From Bdellovibrionota bacterium (lineage in GTDB: Bacteria > Bdellovibrionota_C > UBA2361 > JBIKUX01): 60,139 nt of DNA. The position numbers were made by a program, and so were the translations under genes. The notes beneath the pieces are model-generated. The model was not told where the DNA came from. It made no database searches and was given only the letters and a program-made list of their open reading frames with translations. Shown one piece after another: positions 2,329-59,571 of the stretch. Location of the stretch: contig JBIKUX010000017.1 in NCBI GenBank assembly GCA_044347345.1, positions 1 through 60,139 on the forward strand, given 5' to 3'. Positions within the stretch are counted from its first letter, which is position 1; each line of letters starts with the position of its first letter.

Positions 2329-4053
2329 TTGCTTAACGATTCTCAGATTGAGGGAAAATTTTTGTTAGCTTCCATTTATAAACAGTGTGATAAGTTTTCG
2401 GGCATTAATATTAGTAAGTACGTTTTATTTTTGTTGGGTATTTTACCCACTGTGTCTGTAATTTGGTGGCAGGAGTTTTTTTTAACCCAAGATGGACCAT
2501 CTCATCTTTATAACGCATTTCTACTGTCGTTGCCTGATGAATACTTCAATCAGCTCAAATTAAGCGAATATTTTACCAGAAATACTTTTTGGAGTGGTAA
2601 TTCCGCAGGATATCTTTTTTTTGTAAGTATCGTGAATTTATTTGGACTGAATAACGCTGAACAAATATTGATTACCATTTATGCGCTTTTCTCGACCTTA
2701 GCTCTGGTAGTTGTACTGCCATGTCGCCTATCAGGTAGGACTATTTTATTTCTCGCAGGCCTTATACCACTGATAGTTCTTAATCCAGCCTTGCATTTTG
2801 GATTTTTTAATTTTTGTTTAGGTATTCCTTTTGGTATTTTGGCGACTGTTTTTTATGTAAGAACCTTATGGTTTGGTCATTTTTCTGTCATTTTCATCTG
2901 TTTTCTAGTAGCAGTGGGAAGCATTGCGGCATTACTTCATCCGGTAGTTGGTGCCTTTGTGGTCGGGTTTAGTAGCTGTTATTTGCTATTTGCGACATTT
3001 TTTTTGCCGAAAAGAGATTACTCAAAGCTAAAAAAGGCGTTTATTTGTCTTCTTCCGCCAAAATTCATAGTTTTTTCATACTATGTAAACTCGCCAGCAT
3101 CCTCTAAGAGCGACTTGATATGGGAGCCTTTCGCAGCTCGGGTAGCTGATTTGCTTCACGGAAGTCTTATTGGAGGTTCCCATACACCTTCTGCGAGGAT
3201 AGTTGCGATAATATTAATCGCAGTGGCAACTTTAAATATTATTGCCCAGCTTTCCGGTAAAAATACAAGTTCAGAGAGTTTTCCCAATTCTTTTCAGGGA
3301 AGAGCTTGGCAAGTTGTAGCAGTGCAGAAAAATTTGTTTTTAAATGTTGTACCAACATTCTTGGTGTTAAGTTGGTATCTATGCGCACCAGACCACTATG
3401 CAGGTGGCGGATTTATCGGATTAAGATTAGGAATAGCTCTGATTATTACCTTATTTATAGTGGTCGGCACTGGTAAGCCCCCTCCCATAGTGTTGTCACT
3501 TATAGTCATCATAGCATGTGCGGTAAACTTAACTTCTATTATAATTTATCAAGCCAGGCTAAACATTGAAAGAAGAGAGTACTCTAGACTAATTGAAAAA
3601 ATACCACCTAATTCAACTTTGTTGCCTCTTCATTTTAATTTTTCCCCGACCGGTTTAGGATTGCGGTCAACTTATGAACCTACTCGGCATATTGCTGCGT
3701 ATCAAGCAATTAAGAGTAATTTAGTTTTGTTAAACAACTATGAAGCAGACTTCTTTTACTTCCCAGTTCAATTTTTACCTACGCGCTCCCCATACGGTAA
3801 GGTAATTCCTAGTTCCACATATATTATTCCTCCGTCAAATATAGATTTAGATAGTAAGGATTTTTTTAATAGTGGCGGACGGATTGAATATATAGTTTCT
3901 TGGGATTACTACTCTTTTTTAGAACTTGCAGGGGGCAATAAAGATTACCTATATCTACATTCTAAAATATATGAAGGTCGTCGCGTTATAGCCGAAGGAC
4001 GTGGGGCTTGGAAGCATACAATAGGGCATTTATTCCGTTATCACGCGCCTTAA
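2329..4053 (+). CDS. Polytopic membrane protein, probable GT-C-type glycosyltransferase
   Basis: TQDGPSHLYNA acidic motif after the first TM, GFFNFCLGIP, HPV, many TMs and a C-terminal soluble domain. TTG start uncertain. Confidence 0.55.
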   Translation: MLNDSQIEGKFLLASIYKQCDKFSGINISKYVLFLLGILPTVSVIWWQEFFLTQDGPSHLYNAFLLSLPDEYFNQLKLSEYFTRNTFWSGNSAGYLFFVSIVNLFGLNNAEQILITIYALFSTLALVVVLPCRLSGRTILFLAGLIPLIVLNPALHFGFFNFCLGIPFGILATVFYVRTLWFGHFSVIFICFLVAVGSIAALLHPVVGAFVVGFSSCYLLFATFFLPKRDYSKLKKAFICLLPPKFIVFSYYVNSPASSKSDLIWEPFAARVADLLHGSLIGGSHTPSARIVAIILIAVATLNIIAQLSGKNTSSESFPNSFQGRAWQVVAVQKNLFLNVVPTFLVLSWYLCAPDHYAGGGFIGLRLGIALIITLFIVVGTGKPPPIVLSLIVIIACAVNLTSIIIYQARLNIERREYSRLIEKIPPNSTLLPLHFNFSPTGLGLRSTYEPTRHIAAYQAIKSNLVLLNNYEADFFYFPVQFLPTRSPYGKVIPSSTYIIPPSNIDLDSKDFFNSGGRIEYIVSWDYYSFLELAGGNKDYLYLHSKIYEGRRVIAEGRGAWKHTIGHLFRYHAP

Positions 4054-8257: not shown

Positions 8258-8794
8258 ATGAGTAAGATTAGAGTATTATTGAGGCGAGTAAGTCTGGTTT
8301 TGTCACTTACATTTTATGTGGCTTGTATAACTGTAATTTATTCGCAGCAGGTATCAGCTGATGACTCTAGTAAGTATTCACAGGCTTTGGAGACACAGGC
8401 TTTGGAGATACAGGTTCTGGAGACACAGTTGCAGAAAAACCAACAAAAGTCGGGGATAATATCACAGACTAGTTCTGGTGGTTCAGGTACAAATGTAGCT
8501 ATTGAAACATTTGGTAATGTTGCTACTTCAGGTAAAAATACACAACCAATAACAGGTGTAGTTAAGTTGGATAGGCCTGGACGATGGCTAGCGACTATAC
8601 ACAATAATACTGACTCTTCAGTAGAGGGTTACTTCCGATTCATTGAGATGGGAAAAGGAGCTAAAGAATTAAAGTCAACACCATTTTTGCGACAAATTCC
8701 GCCTAAAGGGTCATATCAGCGTGACTTTCCAGTTGGCCCTACAACGATTGACGCAAAATTAGTTGTGATAGAGTGGAAAACGGTAAAAAAATAA
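8258..8794 (+). CDS. Hypothetical exported protein with a beta-rich C-terminal domain
   Basis: Basic N-terminus, hydrophobic stretch and VSA-D cleavage-like site. Contains QALET-type repeats. Confidence 0.6.
   Translation: MSKIRVLLRRVSLVLSLTFYVACITVIYSQQVSADDSSKYSQALETQALEIQVLETQLQKNQQKSGIISQTSSGGSGTNVAIETFGNVATSGKNTQPITGVVKLDRPGRWLATIHNNTDSSVEGYFRFIEMGKGAKELKSTPFLRQIPPKGSYQRDFPVGPTTIDAKLVVIEWKTVKK
8381..8425 (+). repeat. Three 15-bp in-frame tandem repeats (QALET/QALEI/QVLET)
   Basis: caggctttggagaca / caggctttggagata / caggttctggagaca. Confidence 0.85.
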
Positions 8795-11321: not shown

Positions 11322-13022
11322 TTAGCTCCTGTCGATAAATTCAGCTCTACTAGTAGCATCAGGTTGTGAACCAACTGATCTAAGAAGAGGTCTGAGAGTA
11401 GAATCTCTGCCTGCAGCCTCGGAAGCTATCTCATGCGAAAGGAGACGATAATTAATATGCCCTCCCGGCCGGACTCTTAGCTGAGTAAAATAGCTTAACT
11501 CCTTTACAGACCCATGCATATGGAAAGGGGTGGTCTGAGCAAAAGGGATGCATTGTAAGGCTAATGTTGACGGTAACCATGTTACGTTATCTTCAATCAT
11601 TGAGAGAGTAGCTTCTGCTTGATCAAATAAACATTCTAGATCTTTGCTAAACTCGTCTCCGATTTGTTTTAGCTGTGGGTGATGAGAAATGTATAAAGGT
11701 AATACATAATCTCCAAATCTTAGGGCAGTTGTTGCTGGTCGACACGATAAAATTGGTATGAAGCGCCCCCAAGCTCTGTGACGATTCAGATCGCGAATTT
11801 CACTTATGCTGCAAGTAATCTCAAATGAGCACTGATTTGTTCGATATGATGAACCCATTTGATTGTGGTGTGTGTATACAGCAAACGCACAATTACTCAG
11901 ATCCTCCATAATTGTTGGTGAGCAATTTGATAACCAACCAAATACATCCTTAGTATTTGCCCATGGAGCTATCTCAAGACAAAGTTGTGTTAAAGTTTTA
12001 AGCCCTATTGAAGTATCCCACAGTGTAGTGTCCACATGACATGTAACCTCTTTTCGTTTGAATGAGGTTGGTATCCCAAGAAAAGGGGCTTTATATTTAA
12101 TTAACAGGGTATGTAATTGATCAAGCACTGAGCTAGTAGTTTCATCGGCATTGGTATACCGAATTAGCTCAGCAGCCTCTGCAACGTAACCTATTTTTTT
12201 GGCAAAAGTTGCTTCGGGCGCAAGAAGTGCCTCAATTTGTTCTGCAAGACAATTTAATAAGGGGTCAGAATCTCCCTTAAATAGAGCTATGAGACGAGCC
12301 CACTCCCTAGCAGAAGTGACCCACGCTAATGAGGTTCGGTGTGACAGACCGGAAAGTAAAAAGGCTCTAGCTGTATCAAAAACTCGGGCTTTGAGTGCGC
12401 TTAATTCTCGCTGATTGTTTTTATCTATAGTAAAAACTTTGCTATATTCCTCGGTTAATTTGGCAGTCCACTTGTTAAAAAGAGCAAGCGATGTGCTCTG
12501 AAGTGATAGAAGCTGATTATTTATACAAGAAAATTCCTCATTACTTCCACCTTGAATTACTTGGTTAGGTAATAATTGTTGGAGAGGAATAGGGGAGACT
12601 CCTCTAGCAAAGTTTTGGTATCTGGTGGATCTTTCTTGTCCGGCACCAACTGAAGTTTCATAGAAGAAGCGTAAGGCATGAATAGAGGAAATATTTTCTA
12701 TGTAACAAAAAAGAAGTGCCATATCAGCTACGGAAGCATGACCGTAGCCTCTAAAAATTGAAGCAAGCTTTTTTTCTGCTACATCAGAGTGATCAACAAC
12801 TTCGCTGAATATCTCTTGTACAGAGGCATCAGAGCGTGAATATCGAGCTCCTGCAAATGCTACAAGTGAGGCATAGGGTAAGCTATTACTCGGCAAAGCT
12901 GTTCTTACTACGACGCCAGTGCGTGTATCTTTCACGCTTAAAAGAGCTATGCCGTTTTTACCTAACATTTGCAAGGAAAACTGCAAGTTTGAATTGGTAG
13001 GATAGAGAATATAAGAATCCAT
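11322..13022 (-). CDS. thyX: FAD-dependent thymidylate synthase, two-domain (tandem) type
   Basis: ARYSRS, GYGHASVAD, QERSTRYQ, DTARAFL, RDLNRHR, QLRVRPGGHINYR. About twice the length of single-domain ThyX. Start uncertain. Confidence 0.82.
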   Translation of the reverse strand: MDSYILYPTNSNLQFSLQMLGKNGIALLSVKDTRTGVVVRTALPSNSLPYASLVAFAGARYSRSDASVQEIFSEVVDHSDVAEKKLASIFRGYGHASVADMALLFCYIENISSIHALRFFYETSVGAGQERSTRYQNFARGVSPIPLQQLLPNQVIQGGSNEEFSCINNQLLSLQSTSLALFNKWTAKLTEEYSKVFTIDKNNQRELSALKARVFDTARAFLLSGLSHRTSLAWVTSAREWARLIALFKGDSDPLLNCLAEQIEALLAPEATFAKKIGYVAEAAELIRYTNADETTSSVLDQLHTLLIKYKAPFLGIPTSFKRKEVTCHVDTTLWDTSIGLKTLTQLCLEIAPWANTKDVFGWLSNCSPTIMEDLSNCAFAVYTHHNQMGSSYRTNQCSFEITCSISEIRDLNRHRAWGRFIPILSCRPATTALRFGDYVLPLYISHHPQLKQIGDEFSKDLECLFDQAEATLSMIEDNVTWLPSTLALQCIPFAQTTPFHMHGSVKELSYFTQLRVRPGGHINYRLLSHEIASEAAGRDSTLRPLLRSVGSQPDATSRAEFIDRS

Positions 13023-13032
13023 GTTTAACTAC

Positions 13033-13530
13033 TTAAGCAGCACTAGATTCTATTTTGGAAGAATTTGAGTTATTTTGCTGAGTTTTTTCAGCAGAGTTAT
13101 TGCAAGGGTCATTATTTAACCTCATATCTAATTCACCAAGCTCGTAGAGCAAAGCGAACGGATATATACCAGTGTCGTGACCGTCTCCCCATCTCATACC
13201 GAGAGCATAACGCCCTATAGCCCAAATGTTTTCTAAACGAAGTTCTTCTTGAGATGTATGCTCTACAACTTTTAGTATCGCTGACTTTTTGACACTAGCC
13301 GTAAGCGGGGCATCATGGGAAGAGTCACCTCTCTTGGCTCTACTTACGGCTGAAGGGCAGTGCTCTCTTAGTGTAGCACTTGAAATTTGATGAAGAGTGC
13401 CGTCACTCCATTTTATTATGATTCCGGCACTGCCGTTTCTCTCAATTCTAAGGGGCTTTGCTGATAATGGTCGTTTTTTATCAGAGAAATTAGCGTTAAA
13501 TTCAAAATGATTAGGAGATTCTGATGACAT
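13033..13530 (-). CDS. DUF971 / GBBH-like N-terminal domain protein
   Basis: IKWSDG, LREHCPSA, IGRYALGMRWGDGHDTGIY. Confidence 0.85.
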   Translation of the reverse strand: MSSESPNHFEFNANFSDKKRPLSAKPLRIERNGSAGIIIKWSDGTLHQISSATLREHCPSAVSRAKRGDSSHDAPLTASVKKSAILKVVEHTSQEELRLENIWAIGRYALGMRWGDGHDTGIYPFALLYELGELDMRLNNDPCNNSAEKTQQNNSNSSKIESSAA

Positions 13531-13790
13531 GACCGTATTCTTTCTGCTATTAACTAACCTATTAATAGTAAATGAAAAATCATGGTATTGCTATATTTTG
13601 TGCAGTTTCCTCCAGGATTTAATTCCCAATGAGAAAGTGCTGTATCAATAGCAAATAAAGTGTCAATAATAATAACTAAAAGGTTTAGTAAGTAATGATA
13701 ATTAAGATTTATTAGTTAAGACGATAATTCCGACAAACGTGTATTAATTTGGTTAGTACGCTAAAAAAACAGGATAATAATTACCGCCGT

Positions 13791-13828
13791 AATTAATTAA
13801 TAACCCACAAATTAATTAATAATCCACA
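13791..13828. repeat. Two 19-bp tandem direct repeats upstream of the orphan RelA/SpoT-like gene
   Basis: aattaattaataacccaca (13791-13809) and aattaattaataatccaca (13810-13828), one mismatch. Confidence 0.75.
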
Positions 13829-13859
13829 GTGCTGTATTCGTGAGATAATTAATTTAACA

Positions 13860-15557
13860 ATGCTACAAACCACGAATTTTTTTGAAGCGACCCCTCAGCC
13901 GGGTTCTTTACCTCCCTTACCTAACCAATATCCTAGACTTGATTTTTATCGTAAAATTTATGACCCAGGCCAACTTCCAGAGCAATCCGAAGTAGATGCC
14001 CAGATTGATGATCTAATAAAAAGGTTATGCGATTTACCCGGCACTCAGGAGCGTAGTCAAAATAACGGAGAACCTCCCGTAGGGATTCGTAGACAAGACC
14101 TTATCCTTGAAAGTATCAACCAATTTATTAAGTCAGGTATATTAGAATCACAGGGGCAAGATGGGAAAGATGATGGGAAAGATAACTCAGGGATTAAGGA
14201 TTTAATATATGAATTTAAAAATTTATATAATGCCGAACAGAGAAAGTCGCATAACCGCGAAATCGCAATAAACTTACTAGAGAGATTTTTTTATAACTTT
14301 AGCAACTTAAACCCTGAAGAAGGGCTTATTTTAGCAGTACAACTTTTAGAAAGATGTGAACAACTTTTGTGTTGTAACGAGTACATAGAAAAACAACAAC
14401 AATTGTTAGACAATTTAAATCCGCAAGTTATTTCAAATAACGAGGGGGATATATCAGTTTATAGAAACCCACGAAGTTTAATTTTTCCTGGAATTCTTGC
14501 ACGCCTAAAAAAAATATTAAACGATAAGCAATTATTACTAAACTTGGAGAAGTTAGGACTAAAAGAAGAAACACTTTTCAATAAAATCGGGCGTTGTTTT
14601 GCCAAACATTTATTAGAAAATTTTGATGCTTATTGGAAAACTAATGTAGCATATACAACAAATGATAGTTCTAATGATAATAATTGTGCAAACAAAAGCC
14701 CAAGTTTTAAGGGTTATCTGACGATACAGAAGATAAATATAGGATCTCTGCAAAACTTGTTTTCCGTTTCAGACCGAATAAGATCAAAGCGTCACCTCGC
14801 ATCCAGTTTGCAGTCGATAAAACAGTTTGTGGGTGATTTTTCATGTATTCAACATATTTCAAGTTGGTTTGAGTATAAACCTATACTTGGGTCTCAGATT
14901 ACAAGTGTTAAAACACGCATTAAATCGTTCCTTAGTGTTGTTCAAAAGGATAAGCGCCCCAATAGAGGAGGATACGGTTTAATATTCGATCAGTTTGGGA
15001 TAACTGTTTATGTTAAAGATAAAAACTTAATACCAGAGGTTTTAAAAAAACTTTTTAGCAATTACTACAATTTTGGTGATGAGCTAGGTACTAATTTAAG
15101 ACTTAAGAGACTAGGAGCTCAGCCAACTAAGTGGGATTCGGGGGATACTACATTAGATACTGATATTCAGTACTATGCTGTGTTTGTAGATGAAAGCGGA
15201 CAAATGGTAGGACCACCTTTTGAGCTTAGAGTCTCGTGTAAAAATGATAAGCTAAGTTTTCCGAATAATTTCCTGCCTAAGAATCTTGACCCAAGGCATA
15301 TAATAATAGTGCCTTACAAAATAGAAAAATTGGAAGGGAGAATCGAAACTCCTAAGACTCATCTCCTTGCTACAGGAAAGGAGGTTCCGGTGCAAAGAGG
15401 TGATCCGGAGCAAATAGGTGAGTCGAGTGGAGTGAATAACTCATCAAACACACAAGAACTATCCCCAAAGCATCACTTATTTTATAAACAAGATATAAAC
15501 TCTAGGAGTGGTTTATCTGAATTAATAAAATGGCTAATGAACAAATTGTATTTTTAA
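13860..15557 (+). CDS. Hypothetical protein with a divergent RelA/SpoT synthetase-like (nucleotidyltransferase) domain
   Basis: RIKSFLSVVQK (aa 353-363), DQFG (D377), ELRV (E455) and HHLFYK (H538) occur in the order of RSH synthetase motifs. N-terminal ~340 aa unrecognised. Confidence 0.55.
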   Translation: MLQTTNFFEATPQPGSLPPLPNQYPRLDFYRKIYDPGQLPEQSEVDAQIDDLIKRLCDLPGTQERSQNNGEPPVGIRRQDLILESINQFIKSGILESQGQDGKDDGKDNSGIKDLIYEFKNLYNAEQRKSHNREIAINLLERFFYNFSNLNPEEGLILAVQLLERCEQLLCCNEYIEKQQQLLDNLNPQVISNNEGDISVYRNPRSLIFPGILARLKKILNDKQLLLNLEKLGLKEETLFNKIGRCFAKHLLENFDAYWKTNVAYTTNDSSNDNNCANKSPSFKGYLTIQKINIGSLQNLFSVSDRIRSKRHLASSLQSIKQFVGDFSCIQHISSWFEYKPILGSQITSVKTRIKSFLSVVQKDKRPNRGGYGLIFDQFGITVYVKDKNLIPEVLKKLFSNYYNFGDELGTNLRLKRLGAQPTKWDSGDTTLDTDIQYYAVFVDESGQMVGPPFELRVSCKNDKLSFPNNFLPKNLDPRHIIIVPYKIEKLEGRIETPKTHLLATGKEVPVQRGDPEQIGESSGVNNSSNTQELSPKHHLFYKQDINSRSGLSELIKWLMNKLYF

Positions 15558-18500
15558 ATTAAAGAGCGAAGTTTTTTTTCAATCCAGGCACCAGTAAAAG
15601 CTATCTGATGGTGGTGCTCTACTGTACGTCTGGCCCAATCTCCAAGTTCTATGGTTAGCTTTTTATCGGTAAAAAGGGAGCGCATTTTTTTGGCTAAGTC
15701 TAAATAGCTAGGCTCAGCCCACATCATATCTCTACTAAAATGGAAGTGTTCTAAAGTATGGTGCACATCGATATTTACCAAGCGCTCTACTTCAATAAGT
15801 AAAGCGTTTTTATCGGATAAAAAATCTAACGGAGCTCCCCATCTCGTGGCAATTATCGGTAGCCCACATGCCATAGCTTCAAGATAGGTAAGTCCAATAC
15901 CTTCGCCTCGAGATGGAAGAACGTAAGCGTTACAGCTCCGGTATAAACTTGGTATGTCGGTATCAGGAATATAGTTCTCTAAAAGGGTTATTTGAGGGGC
16001 TTTATCCCACGTCTGATTGTATTCCGCTAGGAAATGGTTAATGCGTTTATTTAATTCGGGAGCCTTAAAAATATCTGGTTCTGATCTTATTATTAGTTCT
16101 ACGGTTTCATTTCGTGAAAATTCCTGAATAAAGGAGCGGAGAAGAATGTCCCATCCTTTGCGATTATTCCATGTAAAGATAGATAAAAATCGGAAGTTTT
16201 TTGACTCAGGAAGTAATTTTTGTCCTTTTGGGTTGAAATGTGAGGTATCAACACCGACTGGTACAACATGAATTTTGTCCGCCTTAACACCCGAATTAAT
16301 AAAGACTGTTCGACAAAAAGTTGAGGTAGTCCACACTTCATCCATAGCGTTACATTCTTTCACCCATGTATCAGGAATTCTATCGGCTTCAAACTTGGTA
16401 AACCCGATAAAATAGTTAAGATGTGGGTGTTTAGCTTGAAATTGAGTAAAGCATTCACCATTATTTGGTTTAGTGGGGGTGTCAAAAATTATCCCTATGC
16501 CTTTTTGGGAGTGATTAATAGCATTTGTTCGGTTAACGGCACCTGTGCGTTGGCATCGCTCAGACAGCCACTTATACTTATCCGGGTCACTTCCGTTTAA
16601 ACTATCTATATAAGTTTCATTGTAGTTTGACGGAGATATATTAAAAGGAATTTGATAAATAGCTAACTGAGTAACAATATTTCTTGCTAAGCTAGCGCAT
16701 TCACCAAAATCAAAGATATTAGAGTGCCATACTACCCTACTAGATGTTTGAGACGAAAGATCCTGAGATGTAGCAAGCTTTTCAAGTGGTGAAAATATTA
16801 ATTCAATTGGTGAATTTTGAGCATCTGTTCGTGTAGGTACTAGACTAACCATTTCATTAACGTGAAGTTGCTCTGATTTGTAGCTGGGTGATATTTGAAG
16901 AGATAATTTTAAAGATATTCCCGGTTGGTCTAATTTAAGTTCATGAGAGATGTTATTTTCTAAAGTGACTCTTACAACTCTTTTTTCTGTTGATGTATCT
17001 GATATTGGCCGCCTGATTATAAAATTAAGGAGCTGATTTACATCTCTTATATTAGCCGGTACGGTAACTGTTATAGGTGTAGTTAAAGATACAACATTGT
17101 GTTCGCTAGAGTAAGAACCTCCAGTGACTTCTAGATTATAGATCGTAAGACAACTACTACCAGATTCTTTATTGTCTTTTATTACGGATCTGCCATTTTG
17201 TGAGTAAGAGTCATCACTTTGTAATGCTACGCAATTTGGCAGCGGGGCGACATGCCAAGATTTTTCTTTAGCTAATTTTATTAATCCCTCTAATGTTTCT
17301 TTAGATATGGAAGGGGAGAGGGAACTCCAGTTAATATTTTTAGCAAGATTTGAATGGATCCCAAATATTTGAGGAGCTAGTGAGAATGACGGATAGGTAT
17401 CAGAGTAATCAAGTAAAACTTTAATGTTGTTATCAACTATTGCAAACCAATCAAGAAAGCGCGATTTATCAGGATTTTTTATGCTTGGTACCCAGACGTG
17501 AGGAATTGATTGTTGGTCAGAGTATTTTGCTAACTCGCCTATGAAATTTGGTTCTATAGCTGTTATTCCTCCACTTATAAAAATAATGTGGGGCATTCGG
17601 GCAGCTTGTGAGCCTTGCTCGTAATAATCTATACACTCCTTCTTGGAGTCTAATGTGGAAGATCCGCCAAGTACTAATATTTCATAGTTGGTTGAACATG
17701 ACTCCCGAATACTTTTAAGCAAGTCATCAAGAGCCTGATTTTGGCTTAAGTTATGTGGTAGTAAAATTGCAAAAGTAACTCCAAATGGTGAATCAGCTAC
17801 CAAATCCTTATTATTTAGATCTATGCCCTCCTGATTGTGCAGTTGTGGCGATAAATTATCATTTAGATGAGCTTCGACTTGTTGTGCTAAGGTAGTAACG
17901 AGTGGCTCAACTTCTAAATTATTAAATTGTTTGTAGCTTATGCTTGACGGTTTAAATGAAATTGGACGATTTAAAGTTTTGGCTAAATTTTTAAGTCCAA
18001 CTCGGTAAGCTGATTGCTCTGGAAAAGAGCAAATTATTTGATTTGCGTGTAAAATTAAGTGTGAGAGAGCGCGGTAGTGGGTAAAAGAGCCTACTATTAT
18101 AGGTGGGCTACCCCATATTTCACTACATTTTATGTTGATAGTTTGAAGTGATGCTAAGTCTGGATTAAGCCGAAACGATAGTACGAGAGCGGGACGATTA
18201 TCACTATGTTTGGCATAGTCAGGATCATCAGGAAAATATTCGAGTAAATGTTGTGCTGATTCCGCTATGATGAGGGTGAGGTTTGAGTTAATAGTTGTGC
18301 TAAGACTAGTTAGCTCGGATGCATGTATTTCATAAGTTAAGGTTTCGCTTAGTGCAAAAGAAGGGGTAATAATCGGCACTTTTTTTGACGGCAGAGCATG
18401 GTCGTCCCACGCTATGACTAGACTAACGTCCCATTTATCGCACCATTCATCTATTTCTTTTTGATTTTCGGAAGTCGTATTTGTAACTAGTCGAGTAATA

Positions 18501-21112
18501 TCTCGGTCAATCGGGCAAAATACCGGATAATTTGACCGTGTAATAATAGGGATGCAAGCATCAAAGATGCGGTTTTGTGCGCCATGACGAGCCAAAATTC
18601 TACGAAAATTTTCAATACCATCAGTAAAAAGCTCACCCCAATCATCAGGTAATATTATTCCTATTCTTGGCAGGGTTCGATGAGATAAAAGTTTTCGAGA
18701 TTGGCGTTCTTGATTATCAGAGTCATGGAAATTTTCCAGCGAATAACTGCCGTGCTTATGCCATCGCGATATGTAAATGTGAAAGTTTGTATCTTCACTC
18801 TTTGTCCTACCAGGACTTTTTGATACGTGGTGGTAGATAGTGCTGTAGGGAGTATAAACGGTTCGTAATCCAGCTCGTTGTACTCGCAGGCATAGGTCAA
18901 TATCTTCGTAGCCGTTTATATATGAGGTATCAAATCCGCCAAGAATTAGGAAAAGTTCACGGCGTACCAAGAGGCATGCACCTGTAACTAATGGTGTTTC
19001 TCGGGGATACAGCGAGCGAAAGTCGTCTGGGTCACTATTTAGTAAGTGATGCTTAGGTACACCGTTAGGTAGGGTGAATAAGCCACAATGGTGAAGTAGC
19101 TTAGTGTCGGGAAATAGTTGCCTGTTTCCAACCATAGCAACGCTTGGATCTGCGAGCTCGGCAATTATGCCATCAAGCCATCCCGGGGTAAGGATAGTGT
19201 CGTTATTTAAAAATAGTACGAATGGGGTTGTAGCTGCGAGAGCTCCGCGGTTGCATGCACCAGCAAAATTTTCATTAGTATCATTAAGTATGACACGGGT
19301 ATCGTCTTTGAGCGTCTTAAGGTATTCCCGCGTTCCATCGGTTGATGCATTATCAACGAGAATCAACTCGTAATTATCCTGATTAGTGGTTTCCTTTAGA
19401 GACGAAAGCATCATTTTTGTGTACTCAAGTGCATTAAATAACGGCACTACTATTGATACTCGAAAAGGTGCTAGTTCTTTTTGACATCGATGTAAAGCAT
19501 CACTAAATTCTCCAGATATTTTGGCTTCTTCGTTAAGTTTTTGGGAGAAAATGTTAAGATGAGGAGATAGTTCTGGATAAAGAGAGCTCCAGTGATGAAG
19601 ATCTTTCGTCAATTTGAAAATATCCCCACCGCACAGGATTTTTGACGGATTGATAGGATTTCTGTTTGACTCACAAGTGTAGCCGTGAATGATACGGTGT
19701 AAAGCTTCTTCTAGTGCATTTTTAACTCTTTTTGGCCCATTTGGTTTGCTGATTGCCTCAGCATAAAACTCCTCCCAAACATGAAGCTCAGCCCAGCCAA
19801 AAGCCGCTAAGTCATCGTTTGTCATTGAGAGGCGTTCAGGATCAATCGAGTACTCAACTGTAGCCTCCTCCAAACAAGCAAATTGGTGCGTGCGGGAAAT
19901 CCTCCGCCATAGATCCCAATCTTCAAGTCGCTTTAGTCTCTCATTAAAGCGATTAGATGGTGATGAAGTCAGGCACTTATGATGGATAATACACGTGACC
20001 GGTATGTAGTTACGAAACAATAATTCGTCTTGGCAAAAGGGCGCTTCATATAGAACGTCACGCTTTAAGAGAATCTCATTTTGTTCCCACCTGCGTGCTC
20101 CAAATGAATACCCGACCTTTAACCCGCTCTGCTCTATGTGCTTTACAAGGTATTCTAGATGGCGAGGCCAAAATATGTCGTCATCATCGAGATAGGCAAT
20201 ATAGGTGCCTCTAGCATTTTGTATCCCTGTATTTCGAGCACCTGCTAACCCTTTATTGGTTTGATGGGTGATGAGTCTAACTCTAGGATCTTTATCAATG
20301 ATAGGAGTCGGAGGTGGCACACCTGCATCGTTTACAACTATGACCTCTACAGCGTTTAAAGTTTGATTGAGTACTGAATGAACAGCTCGTTTAAGTAGTT
20401 TCGGCCGGTTAAAAGTAGGGATAACAACTGAAACTAAGGGCGGCTCGCTCAGAATCCCTGTTTGAGGCGGTGGAATAAATGAGTGTCCTGAATTGACCGC
20501 TACTCTTTGTGCCATTGGCCAGAGGGGTCGAAGATAGCTAACGGAGGGTTGGCGGTTGAGGTAACGGGTGCCCGTGGCTTCAATCGCTCCTACGCCACTA
20601 AGGTTCCGGTCGGGTAGAAGCGACAATAGGGTGGCAGATAGGTAGATACAGGCGTCAGTCAGAAATGGCGGAAGCGAATGAGGATGAGCATTTACATAAT
20701 GTGACACAATCCATTGGGTGTCTAAAATTGAGGCTTGCTCTTCCTTGATGGGAGCAAGAGAGCTAAGAGGCCAAGTCGGTTGAAGCAAAGTGAGACCAAA
20801 AAGCGTAGCTTGCGCTCTAAGAGTAGAACAAAAGGTTTCAAGGTCTGGATCGAAATTTGGAGTGATTCCAGGATTAAGAAGAAGTACAAAAGGAGTTTTG
20901 GATAAAAATGACTTAAGTGAAACTATATGATCTTGTTTAATAGAGCTTGAAAAGGAAAGTAACTTATTGTTTTCATGAGAATAATTTGGTAGGTCATAAT
21001 CTCTTAGGACACCCACCGAATACCCTTCTTCTGCCCACTTGCCTGGTACCCTTTCTGTCCAAATAGAAGGTCGCTCAGCTAGAACTAAGAGCGATATCTG
21101 GGTCCACGGCAT
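15554..21112 (-). CDS. Giant multi-domain glycosyltransferase (GT2 + GT2 + degenerate middle region + GT4)
   Basis: First GT2: VSVVIPTFNR, YLDDDD, EDWDLW. Second GT2: VSIVVPLFN, FLNNDT, GYEDIDLCLR. C-terminal GT4: RKGWDILL, LPSRGEGIGLTYLEAMACGLP. Confidence 0.88.
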   Translation of the reverse strand: MPWTQISLLVLAERPSIWTERVPGKWAEEGYSVGVLRDYDLPNYSHENNKLLSFSSSIKQDHIVSLKSFLSKTPFVLLLNPGITPNFDPDLETFCSTLRAQATLFGLTLLQPTWPLSSLAPIKEEQASILDTQWIVSHYVNAHPHSLPPFLTDACIYLSATLLSLLPDRNLSGVGAIEATGTRYLNRQPSVSYLRPLWPMAQRVAVNSGHSFIPPPQTGILSEPPLVSVVIPTFNRPKLLKRAVHSVLNQTLNAVEVIVVNDAGVPPPTPIIDKDPRVRLITHQTNKGLAGARNTGIQNARGTYIAYLDDDDIFWPRHLEYLVKHIEQSGLKVGYSFGARRWEQNEILLKRDVLYEAPFCQDELLFRNYIPVTCIIHHKCLTSSPSNRFNERLKRLEDWDLWRRISRTHQFACLEEATVEYSIDPERLSMTNDDLAAFGWAELHVWEEFYAEAISKPNGPKRVKNALEEALHRIIHGYTCESNRNPINPSKILCGGDIFKLTKDLHHWSSLYPELSPHLNIFSQKLNEEAKISGEFSDALHRCQKELAPFRVSIVVPLFNALEYTKMMLSSLKETTNQDNYELILVDNASTDGTREYLKTLKDDTRVILNDTNENFAGACNRGALAATTPFVLFLNNDTILTPGWLDGIIAELADPSVAMVGNRQLFPDTKLLHHCGLFTLPNGVPKHHLLNSDPDDFRSLYPRETPLVTGACLLVRRELFLILGGFDTSYINGYEDIDLCLRVQRAGLRTVYTPYSTIYHHVSKSPGRTKSEDTNFHIYISRWHKHGSYSLENFHDSDNQERQSRKLLSHRTLPRIGIILPDDWGELFTDGIENFRRILARHGAQNRIFDACIPIITRSNYPVFCPIDRDITRLVTNTTSENQKEIDEWCDKWDVSLVIAWDDHALPSKKVPIITPSFALSETLTYEIHASELTSLSTTINSNLTLIIAESAQHLLEYFPDDPDYAKHSDNRPALVLSFRLNPDLASLQTINIKCSEIWGSPPIIVGSFTHYRALSHLILHANQIICSFPEQSAYRVGLKNLAKTLNRPISFKPSSISYKQFNNLEVEPLVTTLAQQVEAHLNDNLSPQLHNQEGIDLNNKDLVADSPFGVTFAILLPHNLSQNQALDDLLKSIRESCSTNYEILVLGGSSTLDSKKECIDYYEQGSQAARMPHIIFISGGITAIEPNFIGELAKYSDQQSIPHVWVPSIKNPDKSRFLDWFAIVDNNIKVLLDYSDTYPSFSLAPQIFGIHSNLAKNINWSSLSPSISKETLEGLIKLAKEKSWHVAPLPNCVALQSDDSYSQNGRSVIKDNKESGSSCLTIYNLEVTGGSYSSEHNVVSLTTPITVTVPANIRDVNQLLNFIIRRPISDTSTEKRVVRVTLENNISHELKLDQPGISLKLSLQISPSYKSEQLHVNEMVSLVPTRTDAQNSPIELIFSPLEKLATSQDLSSQTSSRVVWHSNIFDFGECASLARNIVTQLAIYQIPFNISPSNYNETYIDSLNGSDPDKYKWLSERCQRTGAVNRTNAINHSQKGIGIIFDTPTKPNNGECFTQFQAKHPHLNYFIGFTKFEADRIPDTWVKECNAMDEVWTTSTFCRTVFINSGVKADKIHVVPVGVDTSHFNPKGQKLLPESKNFRFLSIFTWNNRKGWDILLRSFIQEFSRNETVELIIRSEPDIFKAPELNKRINHFLAEYNQTWDKAPQITLLENYIPDTDIPSLYRSCNAYVLPSRGEGIGLTYLEAMACGLPIIATRWGAPLDFLSDKNALLIEVERLVNIDVHHTLEHFHFSRDMMWAEPSYLDLAKKMRSLFTDKKLTIELGDWARRTVEHHHQIAFTGAWIEKKLRSLI

Positions 21113-40409: not shown

Positions 40410-41330
40410 ATGATTCACACAGTAGGTATTATTGCCCTGGTTAGCTATTTCCTCGCTTGCGTATTTGGAATTTTTGCAATCATTAGGCACATTTCACCAA
40501 GAGTAGTTCCAGAGATCGGTGACCAGGTTTCTAACGAGAGCAGGTTTACTGCGAGCCGTTTCAGTTTAATTAGGAACCGTCGAGTATCCCGTTTTTTTAT
40601 TGCAGCTAATATCTCTCAGCTATGTGGTTTAGTAGCTACTACTTTGCTGTGTGCCCTTTTATGGTTTACGACTAATAATATCAATCCTACTCAGTATTTT
40701 TTATGGATAGTCGTATTATTTGAGATATTAATAAGAGCCCTTAAACTTAACTTTCCGATGATTAATCTTGGAGGAGCGGTATTTACCACCGTAATTCTTT
40801 TGGGTTCCTCAACCCTACTTCATGTTCAATTTGGTAACACTTCTCCAGAACCGTTTGTAGTAATTACGCACGTTTTACCGGCTTTGTTTGGTTTTGCTTG
40901 TGTGTTTGGAATTTTTCTGGTTAGCATACTTTTTCTCTTTCAATATCGACTTTTAAAGCGAAAAAAGCTTCCTGATCTTTCCCTTCAAACCGCCCCTGGA
41001 CTTGCTCGGCTAGAATCTGCACATAATTTAATGACGGCATTTGGTGTAGCTTCCTTTACATTAGCTATTTTGATTGGAGCTTTAGTCCTTCCGCCTTCCG
41101 GTAGGACTCTAAGTTGGTGGTTTGACACTTCAATAATGAGCACAGCTTTGGCTTGGATTATGCTTTTGGTGTTACTTCAGTTGCGATATGTTGCAGCTCC
41201 TATGAGATATCTTGCATTGGTAACAGTCATAGGAAGTGGAGTCTTAACATTGACGGTTTTTGGGATCGGTCTGTTGAGAGACGATGCTTCATCTGCCCAC
41301 ATTGTATGCTTAGGGTGCGAAAAGAGTTAA
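40410..41330 (+). CDS. CcsA/HemX-like cytochrome c assembly family membrane protein
   Basis: About 8 TMs, THV, FQYRLLKRKK, LARLE. Directly upstream of hemA, a common pairing. Confidence 0.7.
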   Translation: MIHTVGIIALVSYFLACVFGIFAIIRHISPRVVPEIGDQVSNESRFTASRFSLIRNRRVSRFFIAANISQLCGLVATTLLCALLWFTTNNINPTQYFLWIVVLFEILIRALKLNFPMINLGGAVFTTVILLGSSTLLHVQFGNTSPEPFVVITHVLPALFGFACVFGIFLVSILFLFQYRLLKRKKLPDLSLQTAPGLARLESAHNLMTAFGVASFTLAILIGALVLPPSGRTLSWWFDTSIMSTALAWIMLLVLLQLRYVAAPMRYLALVTVIGSGVLTLTVFGIGLLRDDASSAHIVCLGCEKS

Positions 41331-42623: not shown

Positions 42624-43337
42624 TTAAGTGGTAAGTAGGAACGGAACTATAAGTTCCTTAATCTTTGCAGTTAATCTTTCTGTATCATCAGTAGCGTCTA
42701 CTACAGTTAGATTCATTTCGTCAATATGCTCACTTAAAAGTGTGCGCATCTGCAAATAGTTATAAATTATGTTGTTGTAAGGGGATAGTTGAGAGTTTTG
42801 TAGTAGATTATAACATTGAGATCCCGTCAGTTCTTCCTGTCGTATCAGCCCTCCGTATTGTAGTACTATTCGCTTGGTTATAATCTCTGGAGGAGCGTCA
42901 AGAATAATTGTTTGACTTGGTTTTATAGCTATTGAAAAAAGTGAGTGTAACCAATCTGGGTTGGCACCCATTAGTAAAGATTGAACATATAGTGAATAAT
43001 AATATCTGTCGCATAAGACGGTAAATCCCGCCATAAGATTGGGTAAAATACTTTTTTCGATTAGTTCTATTACATTACTCAGTGCAAGTAATGATATTGT
43101 ACGTGCTCCAACAGATTTTGTGGCTCCTTTTGTAAATAATTTATTTACGTCTTCACTAATTTCACCGCAACTAGCAAGCGAGCAAACTCGAACTGGAATA
43201 CCATGATCTAACAGAATACTCTCAAGTCTGCGCACTTGAGTTGTAACTCCTACTCCTTTTAGTCCGTCGATAACTATTAATCGTTCTGTGGTAGGAGACT
43301 TATTTGTTAATGGATCATTTGAAAAAGTTTGGTTCAT
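42624..43337 (-). CDS. Thymidylate-kinase-like protein with degenerate P-loop (candidate regulatory subunit)
   Basis: IDGLKGVGVTTQ lacks the Walker A Lys. LCDRYYYS is retained. Lies 5 bp downstream of the other Tmk-like gene. Confidence 0.75.
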   Translation of the reverse strand: MNQTFSNDPLTNKSPTTERLIVIDGLKGVGVTTQVRRLESILLDHGIPVRVCSLASCGEISEDVNKLFTKGATKSVGARTISLLALSNVIELIEKSILPNLMAGFTVLCDRYYYSLYVQSLLMGANPDWLHSLFSIAIKPSQTIILDAPPEIITKRIVLQYGGLIRQEELTGSQCYNLLQNSQLSPYNNIIYNYLQMRTLLSEHIDEMNLTVVDATDDTERLTAKIKELIVPFLLTT

Positions 43338-43342
43338 GTTAC

Positions 43343-44005
43343 TTAAACCCCCTTAAGTCTAAATATATTACTCAAAGCGGCTCGAAAAAGATTTTGTTGT
43401 TCTTTTGGCGGAAGAGTTGCGTCAATTTGGTTCAGTGAATACTCCGATATTACTCGGTCATATTCATCAGACACTTTTTTTTGAAAAAGAGAAAAGCTTT
43501 CTATACGGTCGGCCGATAAGTTTAGGTCCATTCCAGCTTCGTACCATTTAGGGCGACTGCGTCTGCCTAAAACTCTTTGTTGAGCGATATTTTGTGGGAC
43601 GCGGAAATAGATAGTTAAGTCTGGATAGCATGCAAATGAATATAGTTTTTTAACCCAGGCTGGATCGCAGCCCCGCGCCACATCCCTGACAAAAGCGGTG
43701 AAGATGTACCTATCACACAGAACGATACCTCCAGTTTGTAGGACTGGATGAATGATACGATCGTATCTTTCAGCAAAATCGGCACAATGAAGTGTGGAAA
43801 ACAAGTTAGGGCTCAGTCTCTTAGCTTTTTTTTCTCGACGAATAATCTCTCGAAGAACAGGGGAAGAATTCCATTCAGTAAGCACTACGCAAGAATACTT
43901 TTGAGTTAGCCACTGGTACAGTAAAGAGAGTTGTGTTGATTTGCCAGACCCATCAAGACCCTCTACTGCAACTAGCACTCCAGAATGGGATTGTGTGATG
44001 ACCAT
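43343..44005 (-). CDS. Thymidylate-kinase-like protein (candidate catalytic polyphosphate kinase subunit)
   Basis: VEGLDGSGKSTQ, TEWNSS, LCDRYIFTAFVRDVARG, WYEAGMD. Confidence 0.8.
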   Translation of the reverse strand: MVITQSHSGVLVAVEGLDGSGKSTQLSLLYQWLTQKYSCVVLTEWNSSPVLREIIRREKKAKRLSPNLFSTLHCADFAERYDRIIHPVLQTGGIVLCDRYIFTAFVRDVARGCDPAWVKKLYSFACYPDLTIYFRVPQNIAQQRVLGRRSRPKWYEAGMDLNLSADRIESFSLFQKKVSDEYDRVISEYSLNQIDATLPPKEQQNLFRAALSNIFRLKGV

Positions 44006-44077
44006 TTTTTATTGACTTTTACTACTTACTGTTTAGATGTTGATTCATGGGTAATTTGATGCTCTGTAACTTTTTGA

Positions 44078-56449: not shown

Positions 56450-56812
56450 CTATACAGCAGCAGCTTGAGCCGAAAATTTTTCAGTTAAATTAAAAATGGG
56501 AATATTGTTACCATTAAATTTGGCACCGCTTTGTGCTCCTTTTTCACCTGCTACTGCCACGACGTTGGAATGAGCAATTATCGCTCTCCTTAGCCCATCC
56601 GAATCCAGATCAAGTGCTTCACATATAAAAAGAAAAGAGATAGGCGAATCGCTATCTTCATTTTCAAGAATCCATAGTCTAGCACTTTCTTTTAATTCAC
56701 CATCACCGGTTAAATAATCGGTAATAGCACGTTGCAATACTGCGGCTAAAAGACGCTTCTCCGGTACAAAAGTGGACGCTGGAGGCTCATCGGAATTAGA
56801 CCAAGAATTCAT
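56450..56812 (-). CDS. Hypothetical protein, paralog of 52996-53352
   Basis: PEKRLLAAVL...YL...ARLWI...ISFLFICEALDLD. Confidence 0.8.
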   Translation of the reverse strand: MNSWSNSDEPPASTFVPEKRLLAAVLQRAITDYLTGDGELKESARLWILENEDSDSPISFLFICEALDLDSDGLRRAIIAHSNVVAVAGEKGAQSGAKFNGNNIPIFNLTEKFSAQAAAV

Positions 56813-58671: not shown

Positions 58672-59571
58672 ATGACTGAGGCCTTTGTCAACTCTCCTCC
58701 TCCTCCTGCTCCCCGGTCTTCTGGTTGGCGGCAACTTGATGCTGAAGAGTGCGCTGTGTCTGCCTCCTCAGTTAAGTCAAGTTACGAAAAAACGCCTGAT
58801 TCAAGGATAGCGAAGCCCCACGTCGTCCATACTAACCAAGGGCTTGTGCGTCTCGATACTTTTTCATTATCTCATACTAGGAGCCCCGATTTTGCGTTCT
58901 CTAGTGTAGCATTTACGGCGCTATCTCCGTGCCGAGCGTTAAGTATTTTTGCCAGTGAAGCTAAAGGTACCTCGGTAAGCGCCAAAATTGCGTGTAAGTT
59001 TGCTACTTCTCATTGTAGTGAGGCTATCAGGTGCATCAGTAATTCTGTGATTAAACCGTTACCGCGGGAGCAATGGAGTACTGTTCTTCTTGAAAGTGCC
59101 TTGAGTTCTGGAAATGATGCTCTTTACAGTTTGGGAACTCGTCTCGCCGCCACTGGCAGGGTTAGAACAAATTTTACGGGCTTTGTAGTGGCAGGGCCCT
59201 CGGTGGCTGTCGCTCGCCTTGGAGGAGGCTGTCTTTATCTTTCTCGTCGTGGCAAACTGTTTCCTTTTTTTTTCGGTGAGGATAATGGCCCAAAATTGGG
59301 GGAATCTGGGGATATTGAACTGCATGTAGTATCCTCTCGACTTGAAAAAGGCGATACGATATTCATTTTTTCCCGTTCTCTTGCTAAACATGAGGAACAC
59401 AGCCTTTTAGATATCCTCGAAGAAAAAGAGGCAAATTCAAATAACCATAAAAATTTGACCAATGTGAGTGTTTATTCCTCTTGTGTTTTCACAAGCTTTG
59501 CGGGCTGGTGCGAGACTATGATTTGTAAAAACCAACCTGTTGGATTTGCGGCACGCTTAACTTTAGGTTAG
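58672..59571 (+). CDS. Degenerate PP2C/PPM-fold protein
   Basis: IFASEAKG, ESALSSGNDAL, VARLGGGCLYLSRRGKL and LEKGDTIFIFSRSL map onto PP2C motifs without the catalytic Asp residues. Confidence 0.6.
   Translation: MTEAFVNSPPPPAPRSSGWRQLDAEECAVSASSVKSSYEKTPDSRIAKPHVVHTNQGLVRLDTFSLSHTRSPDFAFSSVAFTALSPCRALSIFASEAKGTSVSAKIACKFATSHCSEAIRCISNSVIKPLPREQWSTVLLESALSSGNDALYSLGTRLAATGRVRTNFTGFVVAGPSVAVARLGGGCLYLSRRGKLFPFFFGEDNGPKLGESGDIELHVVSSRLEKGDTIFIFSRSLAKHEEHSLLDILEEKEANSNNHKNLTNVSVYSSCVFTSFAGWCETMICKNQPVGFAARLTLG

Follow-up and report, generated by a model that had tools for sequence, protein, structure and literature searches.

A gene without recognised relatives

The window analysed here is the whole stretch of 60,139 nucleotides forming positions 1 to 60,139 of contig JBIKUX010000017.1 (assembly GCA_044347345.1) from a Bdellovibrionota bacterium; the assembly comprises 2.53 Mb in 68 contigs and is 95.8% complete. 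All coordinates are positions in this window. The gene of interest occupies 13860..15557 on the plus strand and its 565-amino acid (aa) product is referred to as P0001, the C-terminal part of which is probably a very diverged domain of the RelA/SpoT homologue (RSH) type. The gene is the sole plus-strand gene between minus-strand genes at 13033..13530 and 15554..21112 and has a GC content of 35.3%, compared with 40.2% for the genome, in agreement with the first-pass annotation, which had described a lone AT-rich plus-strand gene between minus-strand genes. The GC deficit lies at the first and second codon positions (0.45 and 0.32, where the means are 0.52 and 0.40) and the GC content of the third position (GC3) is 0.288 against a mean of 0.301 for 1,069 long open reading frames (ORFs). 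Thus the low GC content reflects the amino acid composition of P0001 and not foreign codon usage.

The gene is real and is coding in this frame. The frame is free of stop codons across 565 codons, an event with a chance of P ~3e-20 at the composition of P0001. In frame, the codon log-likelihood ratio per codon is 0.161, at the 11th percentile among the 1,069 long ORFs, and none of the other five frames exceeds 0.04. Competing ORFs within the gene, on either strand, do not exceed 53 aa. A chance long open frame, or one antisense to another feature, might have been suspected given that there is no obvious Shine-Dalgarno sequence ahead of the ATG, that P0001 has no homologues and that a scan for sigma-70-like promoters gave 5 sites against 8.7 expected from shuffles with none upstream of the P0001 start. 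However, the length of the open frame, the frame-specific codon signal, a GC3 equal to the genome mean and the lack of a competing ORF make this extremely improbable. Lake and freshwater metagenome runs contain the locus, and two of the DNA runs, dating from 2017 and 2020 and belonging to separate studies, match it with 100% identity; the complete 565-aa sequence is recorded for 9 contigs. The aspartyl-tRNA synthetase (AspRS) encoded in the window shows 56–60% similarity to those of Bdellovibrionota metagenome-assembled genomes and 47–55% to those of other phyla, which makes the placement in a phylum on this evidence a tentative one. The idea of a Chlamydia-like host was considered as well; the genome gave no TLC/NTT match, but neither did control genomes, so this negative carries no weight, and the AspRS points to Bdellovibrionota.

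Database searches with P0001 were almost entirely negative. No family in Pfam, NCBIfam, PADLOC or PHROGs was matched at E ≤ 1, and searching the two halves of the protein against Pfam at E ≤ 10 gave nothing except a negligible match to SLIDE (E 0.092, aa 221–262), which was disregarded as weak. A word-indexed search of 5.8 billion clusters gave no homologue, and an exhaustive phmmer search of 1,835,955,588 representatives found only P0002, a 242-aa sequence 100% identical to aa 324–565 which is encoded by the same gene on a 2,561-nucleotide contig and is, therefore, a fragment of P0001. Nothing credible was found in 60 relatives, a match at E 0.008 in one of them (G037) being treated as noise as it contained 5 internal stop codons. 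The closest of the relatives compared share only the order with the source genome, which alone represents its family among the genomes compared. There was no paralogue in the six frames of the genome itself at E ≤ 1 and no tblastn match at E ≤ 1 in 50,697 phage and 72,556 plasmid records. P0001 is a singleton among ~15 billion proteins, hence the new RSH ‘subfamily’ proposed in the first-pass annotation has no family behind it. Searches of open-access literature turned up no description of a protein like P0001 and, among the papers listed, nothing relevant on RSH oddities in Bdellovibrio-like bacteria or on orphan or pseudoenzyme RSHs.

Motifs resembling those of RSH synthetases

The motifs of the RSH synthetase domain are given in the legend to Figure 1 of PMC6163740 as Syn1 (RxKxxxSxxxK), Syn2 (DxxxxR), Syn3 (YxxxH), Syn4 (ExQIRT) and Syn5 (H). 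For RelSeq of S. equisimilis, which serves here as the structural reference, PMC13299517 describes two essential carboxylates, Asp264 (the D264G form is inactive) and Glu323, and lists nucleotide contacts from Arg241, Lys243, Ser247, Lys251, His312 and Gln325. For FaRel2, D90, which binds Mg2+, and Y128, which stacks on the acceptor, are described as essential and as highly conserved among small alarmone synthetase (SAS) enzymes (bioRxiv 10.1101/2021.04.30.441581).

Four strings in P0001 had been noticed in the first-pass annotation, namely R353-I-K-S-F-L-S-V-V-Q-K363, D377-Q-F-G380, E455-L-R-V and H538-H-L-F-Y-K543, and all are found at these residues. The separation of about 80 aa between the last two was also correct, E455 and H538 being 83 residues apart. 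Placing the motifs as blocks (Table 1) put Syn1, Syn2 and Syn5 at the sites assigned to them but not Syn4, as E455LRV scores just 1.1 bits against 9.1 bits for E492GRIET; Syn4 is probably the latter. Furthermore, the YxSxH motif (Syn3), thought to be missing, probably survives in altered form as W425DSGD, which occupies the Syn3 slot at the expected spacing. Altogether, 12 of the 17 residues named in the five motif strings used in the first-pass annotation are identical in P0001.

By block placement, R353, K355, S359 and K363 align with Arg241, Lys243, Ser247 and Lys251 of RelSeq, D377 aligns with Asp264 (24 residues after R353 compared with 23 in the RelSeq numbering) and E492 aligns with Glu323. 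At Syn3, D429 stands in place of His312, the Ser is kept as S427 and the aromatic W425 replaces Tyr; Trp is also found at this aromatic position in a family of SAS-like proteins with a member in the same genome. At Syn4, R494 stands for Gln325 and E496 for Arg, with T497 and the Pro kept. The residues on the donor side and those for catalysis are thus kept and those on the acceptor side are changed, a pattern expected from a switch of acceptor and compatible with partial decay as well.

The starts of successive blocks are spaced by 26, 45, 70 and 46 residues in P0001 and by 25, 41, 19 and 18 residues in Rel. The last two spacings imply insertions of ~51 aa (within aa 433–488) and ~28 aa (within aa 499–534). 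The first insertion includes E455LRV (nucleotides 15222–15233) and was modelled by AlphaFold2 (AF2), with low confidence, as containing strands at 434–443, 454–461, 464–466 and 480–485. A sequence search of the PDB with P0001 returned only the N-terminal ubiquitin-like domain of Notchless/NLE1 (four distinct sequences, E 0.021–0.53) and the matches fall on aa 429–507 (window ~15144–15380), the region of this same Syn3–Syn4 insertion, which might be a small beta-grasp-like module. P0001 ends 22 residues past Syn5. Its C-terminal E-L-I-K-W-L-M resembles the E-L-L-R-W-L-F of the SAS-like family, a likeness which is not significant alone.

Significance of the resemblance

Of 2,901 open frames in all six frames of the genome (at least 100 aa each, 856,750 residues), two carry the strict pattern R.K...S...K.{5,30}D..G, namely P0001 and the canonical Rel, and both also have H..YK downstream. 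When P0001 was shuffled 20,000 times, Syn1 appeared in 225 sequences, Syn1 with Syn2 in 12 and the combination of Syn1, Syn2 and Syn5 in none. This full pattern was present in 120 of 120 long RSHs; strict Syn1 was present in 0 of 120 SAS-like proteins.

A hidden Markov model (HMM) of the N-terminal halves of 120 long RSHs gave one match in P0001, to aa 348–389, with E 0.0029 as a single comparison, a value reached by 2 of 1,000 shuffles. A second HMM, built on 120 sequences related to the SAS-like protein, matched aa 359–401 with E 0.027 (30 of 1,000 shuffles) and the merged profile gave E 0.0032 (1 of 1,000 shuffles). With hhalign, P was 0.0018 over 122 columns covering Syn1 to Syn3. The top BLASTP alignment with the Rel of the genome placed aa 331–422 on Rel 255–335 with one small gap and with the Syn1 and Syn2 strings aligned, though at 27% identity over 92 aa and E 0.64 it is not significant.

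Ungapped position-specific scoring matrix blocks for Syn1 to Syn5 were then taken from the long-RSH HMM and the best collinear chain was scored. P0001 gave 46.5 bits. Shuffled sequences gave a mean of 24.0 (standard deviation 3.9, maximum 42.6) with 0 of 5,000 reaching the score of P0001, and the reversed sequence gave 29.5, in support of the earlier claim that the motifs resemble those of RSH synthetases and stand in the same order. The three downstream blocks alone (aa 386–565), which are independent of the Syn1/Syn2 anchor, scored 20.8, reached by 19 of 5,000 shuffles. For four of the five blocks, with starts at 348, 374, 419 and 489, the global best placement was in the correct order. Ranking the chains of 1,962 real open frames of at least 150 aa placed Rel first (162.2) and P0001 second (46.5), followed by 42.4, 41.3 and the SAS-like protein (40.6).

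Structural information came from the ESM Atlas and from AF2. A structure search with the Atlas model of P0001 gave RelA/SpoT proteins as the best 5 of the 30 nearest models, with TM-scores of 0.31–0.35. Among the feature neighbours, the only named cluster carries PF04607, the RelA_SpoT family, in 15% of its members (score 0.90), and with aa 324–565 alone a cluster with PF04607 in 12% of members was at rank 2 (score 0.89). The nearest clusters without a name occur most often in Uhriibacteriota and Woesearchaeota, and the cluster with RelA_SpoT close to the C-terminal part does so in Peregrinibacteriota. By the Atlas's own calibration these results are leads and not proof, but they are independent of the motif choice made in the first-pass annotation. 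Single-sequence AF2 models had a predicted local distance difference test (pLDDT) score of 34.7 for the full length and 39.1 for aa 324–565. With this low confidence, aa 344–485 were modelled as helix, strand, strand, helix and four strands, and a C-terminal helix followed at 549–563; the order in aa 344–485 is one which we take to be compatible with the RSH core. The only Foldseek matches, for both models, were to the N-domain of Hsp90/GHKL proteins (E 0.03–0.3, TM ≤ 0.22) and were rejected on account of their rmsd of 10–23 Å, both models being from the same method. The best VIA-align Z-score was 4.1, to a carbohydrate-binding module.

A considerable number of observations weigh against an RSH origin and function. 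PF04607, which has a gathering score of 27 bits, gave no match to P0001 at E ≤ 1 with the whole protein or at E ≤ 10 in the genome search and with the two halves, although the same genome search found Rel (155.6 bits) and the SAS-like protein (25.5 bits). Formal membership of the RSH family can, therefore, not be claimed, and the negative searches of NCBIfam, PADLOC and PHROGs fall on the same side. The hhalign probabilities were just 4% and 15%. The best unrelated real frame lies only 4 bits below P0001 in the chain ranking (42.4 against 46.5), and of the 46.5 bits Syn1 alone supplies 17.5. A chain built with the blocks of the SAS-like family is weak, being reached by 114 of 5,000 shuffles and leaving P0001 outside the top 12 of the genome. 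The block boundaries were fixed after the alignment had been viewed, albeit at the Syn1 to Syn5 of the literature, and the profiles made for this work are narrow, their members being at least 66% and at least 47% identical to the queries. Of the 17 residues in the motif strings five differ, and room is needed for ~80 extra residues from Syn3 to Syn5. The Atlas TM-scores are below 0.5 and the Atlas model has a pLDDT of 0.36. Fold searches with both low-confidence AF2 models (Foldseek against the PDB and VIA-align against 48,161 chains) listed no RSH, though with models of such low confidence the absence of a match does not refute an RSH fold. Finally, since neither homologues nor sequence variants were found, purifying selection is not evident at any residue.

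Many of these points would be expected if the resemblance had arisen by chance in a fast-evolving, lineage-specific protein of unrelated fold and function. No curated HMM recognises P0001, the hhalign probability never exceeds 15%, the margin over the real-frame control is small, fold searches with the AF2 models list no RSH and large insertions are required to fit Syn4 and Syn5. In addition, the ORF was picked in the first-pass annotation for its motifs, making the statistics partly post hoc. Chance does not readily explain why the strict combination of Syn1 and Syn2 is otherwise confined to a true Rel among the 2,901 frames, why so few shuffles match the downstream blocks once Syn1 and Syn2 are removed, or why the best sites of four blocks across the whole protein fall in the correct order. 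Nor does it explain the Atlas look-ups, in which RSH is the only named family and in which the choice of motifs played no part. A chance origin is thus a serious competitor but somewhat unlikely. We consider it rather probable, on the evidence of the sequence, that the C-terminal region descends from an RSH synthetase domain, and from this common ancestry we infer a related fold.

Proposed activity of P0001

If this origin is accepted, P0001 would be a cytoplasmic protein of two parts, a ~345-aa all-helical N-terminal region and a ~220-aa C-terminal region, the latter being an extremely diverged synthetase-type domain of the RSH enzymes carrying the two insertions of ~51 and ~28 aa. R353, K355, S359, K363, D377 and E492 would hold the phosphates of ATP and Mg2+ and carry out catalysis as in RSH enzymes, and W425 would provide the aromatic side chain at the acceptor-stacking position. 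The residues expected to read guanine appear changed, with T382 for Arg, D429 for His, R494 for Gln and E496 for Arg. In that case the reaction would most likely be an Mg2+-dependent transfer of the beta,gamma-pyrophosphate of ATP to the 3'-OH of an acceptor which is not GDP or GTP. An RSH-derived protein that is still catalytic and uses a non-guanine acceptor, a toxin-like role included, is the reading we prefer and we give it a probability of about 0.4.

This reading can be elaborated. P0001 might be an active singleton pyrophosphokinase in which the donor site is intact, the acceptor pocket has been rebuilt by T382, W425, D429, R494 and E496, the beta-rich insertion of 51 aa enlarges the pocket to take a new acceptor and the N-terminal region gates the reaction. 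The new acceptor, one which no RSH is known to use, might be an RNA end, a nucleotide without a purine base, or a nucleotide sugar or cofactor. Taken with all of its details, this elaborated version is quite unlikely.

The same evidence of homology would serve equally well for an RSH-derived pseudoenzyme, perhaps arising from a duplicated N-terminal half of Rel, which has lost catalysis and which either has a binding, regulatory or scaffold role or is drifting toward loss. Compared with the contact list of PMC13299517, the acceptor contacts are changed at T382, D429, R494 and E496, two large insertions lie within the catalytic core, and P0001 stands alone and shows no sign of conservation. In addition, a canonical Rel and the SAS-like protein are already encoded in the genome. 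PMC3153485 describes precedents for inactive RSH domains, namely the inactive HD domain of RelA, the Moraxellaceae SpoT[Hs] and the very divergent HD domain of rickRel[hS]. However, retention of the residues for ATP, Mg2+ and catalysis (R353, K355, S359, K363, D377, the Syn4 Glu and H539/Y542/K543) is unexpected under free decay, and the 565-codon frame is intact and has native codon usage. Loss of catalysis therefore appears rather unlikely and a catalytic domain with a changed acceptor is still favoured.

The N-terminal region may be a regulatory or targeting module. In the low-confidence AF2 model, 11 helices were assigned to it by DSSP. The first-pass annotation had called these ~340 aa a region of no known kind and had seen no HD, TGS or ACT domain, and both statements hold: aa ~1–345 match no family, and Pfam finds none of HD, HD_4, TGS and ACT in P0001 at E ≤ 1 with the whole protein or at E ≤ 10 with the halves. 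Rows labelled ‘HD_4’ in the Atlas output, below its naming bar, raised the idea of a pseudo-HD domain in aa 1–345. This was rejected as a chain of HD blocks was reached by 587 of 5,000 shuffles. P0001 does not contain any ‘HD’ dipeptide.

Table 1. Features of the P0001 gene and its upstream region. Positions are those of the window; residues are those of P0001; block scores are in bits.
Feature	Residues	Position	Strand	Remarks
AT-rich divergent intergenic region, 329 bp		13531..13859	.	Shared with the DUF971, ThyX-like and GT61 genes
P0001 ORF, lineage-specific ORFan	565 aa	13860..15557	+	Frame intact; codon signal; no homologue beyond its own fragment
N-terminal region	1–345	13860..14894	+	Predicted all-helical; no family; no HD-hydrolase signal
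Syn1-like block	348–364	14901..14951	+	R353-x-K355-x3-S359-x3-K363, exact RxKxxxSxxxK; 17.5 bits, best placement in P0001
Syn2-like block	374–387	14979..15020	+	D377 and G380, Thr382 for Arg; 8.2 bits, best placement
Syn3-like block	419–432	15114..15155	+	W425-D-S427-G-D429-T-T against Y-x-S-x-H-T-T; 7.4 bits, best placement
Insertion 1	433–488	15156..15323	+	~51 aa over Rel; block gap 70 against 19 in Rel; predicted beta-rich
Syn4-like block	489–498	15324..15353	+	E492-G-R494-I-E496-T497-P498 against E-I-Q-I-R-T-P; 9.1 bits, next best 4.0
Insertion 2	499–534	15354..15461	+	~28 aa over Rel; gap 46 against 18; partly low-complexity (Ser/Asn/Gly-rich)
Syn5-like block	535–544	15462..15491	+	H539-x-x-Y542-K543, exact HxxYK; 4.3 bits, not the global best site of the block
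C-terminal helix	549–563	15504..15548	+	AF2 helix, low confidence

Genomic setting

The gene upstream of P0001, at 13033..13530 on the minus strand, encodes a 165-aa GBBH-like_N/DUF971 protein (E 4.5e-18). Downstream, the 3' end of the P0001 gene overlaps by 4 nucleotides the convergent gene at 15554..21112 on the minus strand, which encodes a very large glycosyltransferase (1,852 aa) containing two GT2 domains and, at the C-terminus, a GT4 domain and which lies directly upstream of the dcw cluster, this being on the other strand. The surroundings also contain genes for SecG, tRNA-Leu, a GT61 glycosyltransferase and a 566-aa double ThyX-like protein, the dcw cluster itself (mraZ to murG), haem biosynthesis genes and aminoacyl-tRNA synthetases. 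The neighbourhood is of a housekeeping type and not obviously an accessory island.

Within the intergenic region upstream of P0001, TAATTAAT-type palindromes occur at 13789–13855 and a 10-nucleotide direct repeat, AGTGCTGTAT, occurs at 13636 and 13828. No Rfam match above noise was found in this upstream region. Contigs from RNA libraries (two libraries, one study) share a start at 13595 and end at 13784 and 13892; in all, contigs from these libraries cover only 13595–13892, 14496–14666, which is inside the P0001 ORF, and 15511–15673. Such contigs carry no information on strand or level and may reflect DNA carry-over, and the parts of the ORF which they leave uncovered are uninformative, so they are at best a weak hint that P0001 is transcribed. 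The region 13531–13859 might serve as a long 5' leader or an operator cluster, or might encode a small RNA.

The setting bears on a special case of the preferred reading, in which P0001 would be an effector like the toxic SAS enzymes (toxSAS), either a (pp)pApp synthetase or a tRNA 3'-pyrophosphorylase, with the N-terminal region as a fused antitoxin or sensor and with a role in phage defence or against prey. RSH toxins using non-guanine acceptors are described in bioRxiv 10.1101/2021.04.30.441581 and PMC7229694. The absence of an antitoxin gene next to P0001, reported in the first-pass annotation, is correct as the upstream intergenic region holds only a 40-codon frame and the downstream gene is the convergent glycosyltransferase. 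Given that there is no separate antitoxin gene, any control of a toxSAS-like P0001 would be built in. The AspRS of the window is closest to those of Bdellovibrionota, a group which includes predatory bacteria. However, the conserved bicistronic toxin–antitoxin layout that PMC7229694 describes for toxSAS is absent, and searches for defence families of PADLOC-DB v2 in P0001 and its four neighbours gave 0 matches at E ≤ 1. The neighbours are of the housekeeping type (thymidylate-synthase-like protein, glycosyltransferases and dcw cluster), P0001 has no phage, plasmid or PHROG relative, and neither a signal peptide nor a neighbouring secretion-system gene was evident by inspection. A toxin-like role is accordingly very improbable.

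Other genes in the window deserve brief mention. The ThyX-like protein (11322–13022, minus strand) is of double length and very divergent, matching Pfam Thy1 in two stretches (E 2.7e-12) and scoring 16.7 bits with NCBIfam thyX against a cut-off of 87.9; its best match is the viral PHROG ‘thymidylate synthase’ phrog_36506 (E 2.4e-37). In the protein collection it clusters with no other sequence, and a search of 40 relatives at E ≤ 1e-10 did not find it, so it cannot be used for a comparison of positional orthologues. No other thymidylate-synthase-like gene was detected in the genome, a search for ThyA having found none. Tandem genes for thymidylate-kinase-like proteins of 237 and 220 aa (42624–45634, minus strand; E 8e-14 and 3e-23) adjoin a gene for a 518-aa Ppx/GppA phosphatase with an HD domain, which is a (p)ppGpp- or polyphosphate-related enzyme within the same window as P0001. 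Eight further ORFs in the window, of 120–738 aa, have no Pfam family at E ≤ 1e-5. They are located at 230–2164 (−), 2329–4053 (+), 8258–8794 (+), 40410–41330 (+), 50610–52826 (+), 56450–56812 (−), 57342–58484 (−) and 58672–59571 (+). Their number indicates a lineage rich in unannotatable proteins in which the ORFan status of P0001 is not unusual.

Comparison with known RSH systems

Computation does not settle the case, since homologues, a reliable structure and informative neighbours are all lacking. If the domain works, P0001 would be an RSH-type pyrophosphokinase unrecognised by annotation models and probably having a new acceptor, which would extend the chemistry of the alarmone-synthetase fold; switches of acceptor have already surprised the field twice, with (pp)pApp and with the tRNA 3' end. 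Should it prove to be a pseudoenzyme or to look like an RSH by chance, P0001 would be an ordinary lineage-specific ORFan. It is an example of an RSH signal at the level of motifs which falls under the thresholds of the HMMs and should be regarded as a modest lead and not a discovery.

The canonical Rel of the genome (766 aa, contig 4) shares with P0001 the collinear order of Syn1 to Syn5, with Syn1 and Syn5 exact, and the spacings from Syn1 to Syn2 and from Syn2 to Syn3 are nearly the same. The catalytic Asp and the Syn4 Glu which PMC13299517 describes for RelSeq, a long RSH, have probable counterparts in P0001 (D264 = D377 and E323 = E492), and the best 5 of the 30 nearest Atlas models were all long RSHs. 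Unlike long RSHs, P0001 lacks the HD hydrolase, TGS and ACT domains and is not detected by PF04607. Unlike Rel, it has the Syn2 Arg, the Syn3 His and the Syn4 Gln and Arg replaced, has insertions of ~51 and ~28 aa and has an unrelated region of 345 aa ahead of its RSH-like part.

The SAS and toxSAS proteins (RelQ/RelP, FaRel, FaRel2, PhRel, CapRel and Tas1), compared here through their published descriptions only, resemble P0001 in having a synthetase-type domain without HD, TGS or ACT domains, but P0001 is much longer and its RSH-like part is C-terminal. According to bioRxiv 10.1101/2021.04.30.441581, RSH enzymes can switch their acceptor to adenine nucleotides or to the CCA end of tRNA, and the SAS enzymes so switched keep the Mg2+-binding Asp and the stacking aromatic residue, which would correspond to D377 and W425 in P0001. 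PMC7229694 describes SAS and toxSAS as recognised by RSH HMMs and toxSAS as encoded in conserved bi- or tricistronic toxin–antitoxin operons with an adjacent antitoxin gene, neither of which is the case for P0001.

The second RSH-like protein of the genome, the SAS-like protein referred to above, has 371 aa (contig 45, L004:1291-2406, minus strand) and 478 database relatives. Its score with PF04607 is 25.5 bits, or 27 with its neighbours in frame, which reaches the cut-off; it has no NCBIfam match at E ≤ 10 and adjoins a membrane protein and a PP2C-like frame. Only a minority of its listed relatives have a precomputed PF04607 match, and for some the source gives the name ‘ppGpp synthetase/RelA/SpoT-type nucleotidyltransferase’. 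The protein itself has K for the Syn2 Arg, W at Syn3 and E-I-Q-V-Q-P at Syn4. In common with P0001 it is of a divergent synthetase type with an N-terminal helical extension, a Syn3 Trp and D-x-F-G-[IL] at Syn2, and its family shares with P0001 the C-terminal string E-L-[LI]-[RK]-W-L-[FM]. Matches to PF04607 are confined to a minority of members both among the listed members of this family and in the Atlas clusters nearest to P0001. Unlike P0001, which has no homologues, it has hundreds. Kinship between P0001 and this family was considered and found weak, in view of the HMM E-value of 0.027, the chain reached by 114 of 5,000 shuffles and the position outside the top 12. Proteins of TIGR04552, a further divergent RSH-like family, were not found in the source genome and occur in 2 of 40 relatives, as L086 (G003 contig 41) and L087/L088 (G001 contig 62), the G001 match being split into two pieces within one 274-aa frame.

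In the classification described in PMC7229694 and PMC3153485, which rests on the significance of HMM matches, 30 SAS, 11 SAH and 13 long-RSH subfamilies are recognised. The groups divRel and rickRel[hS] are described in PMC3153485 as catch-all groups for very divergent RSHs with only a synthetase domain or with a decayed HD domain. Membership of these groups needs a significant E-value with the SYNTH HMM, the value cited there for one divRel being 8E-7, and P0001 falls short of this. Since P0001 does not reach significance with the HMMs, lacks HD, TGS and ACT domains and is not in a toxin–antitoxin operon, it is not filed under any named subfamily. In its overall plan, as judged from the sequence, P0001 most resembles a synthetase-only RSH to which a foreign N-terminal extension has been joined.

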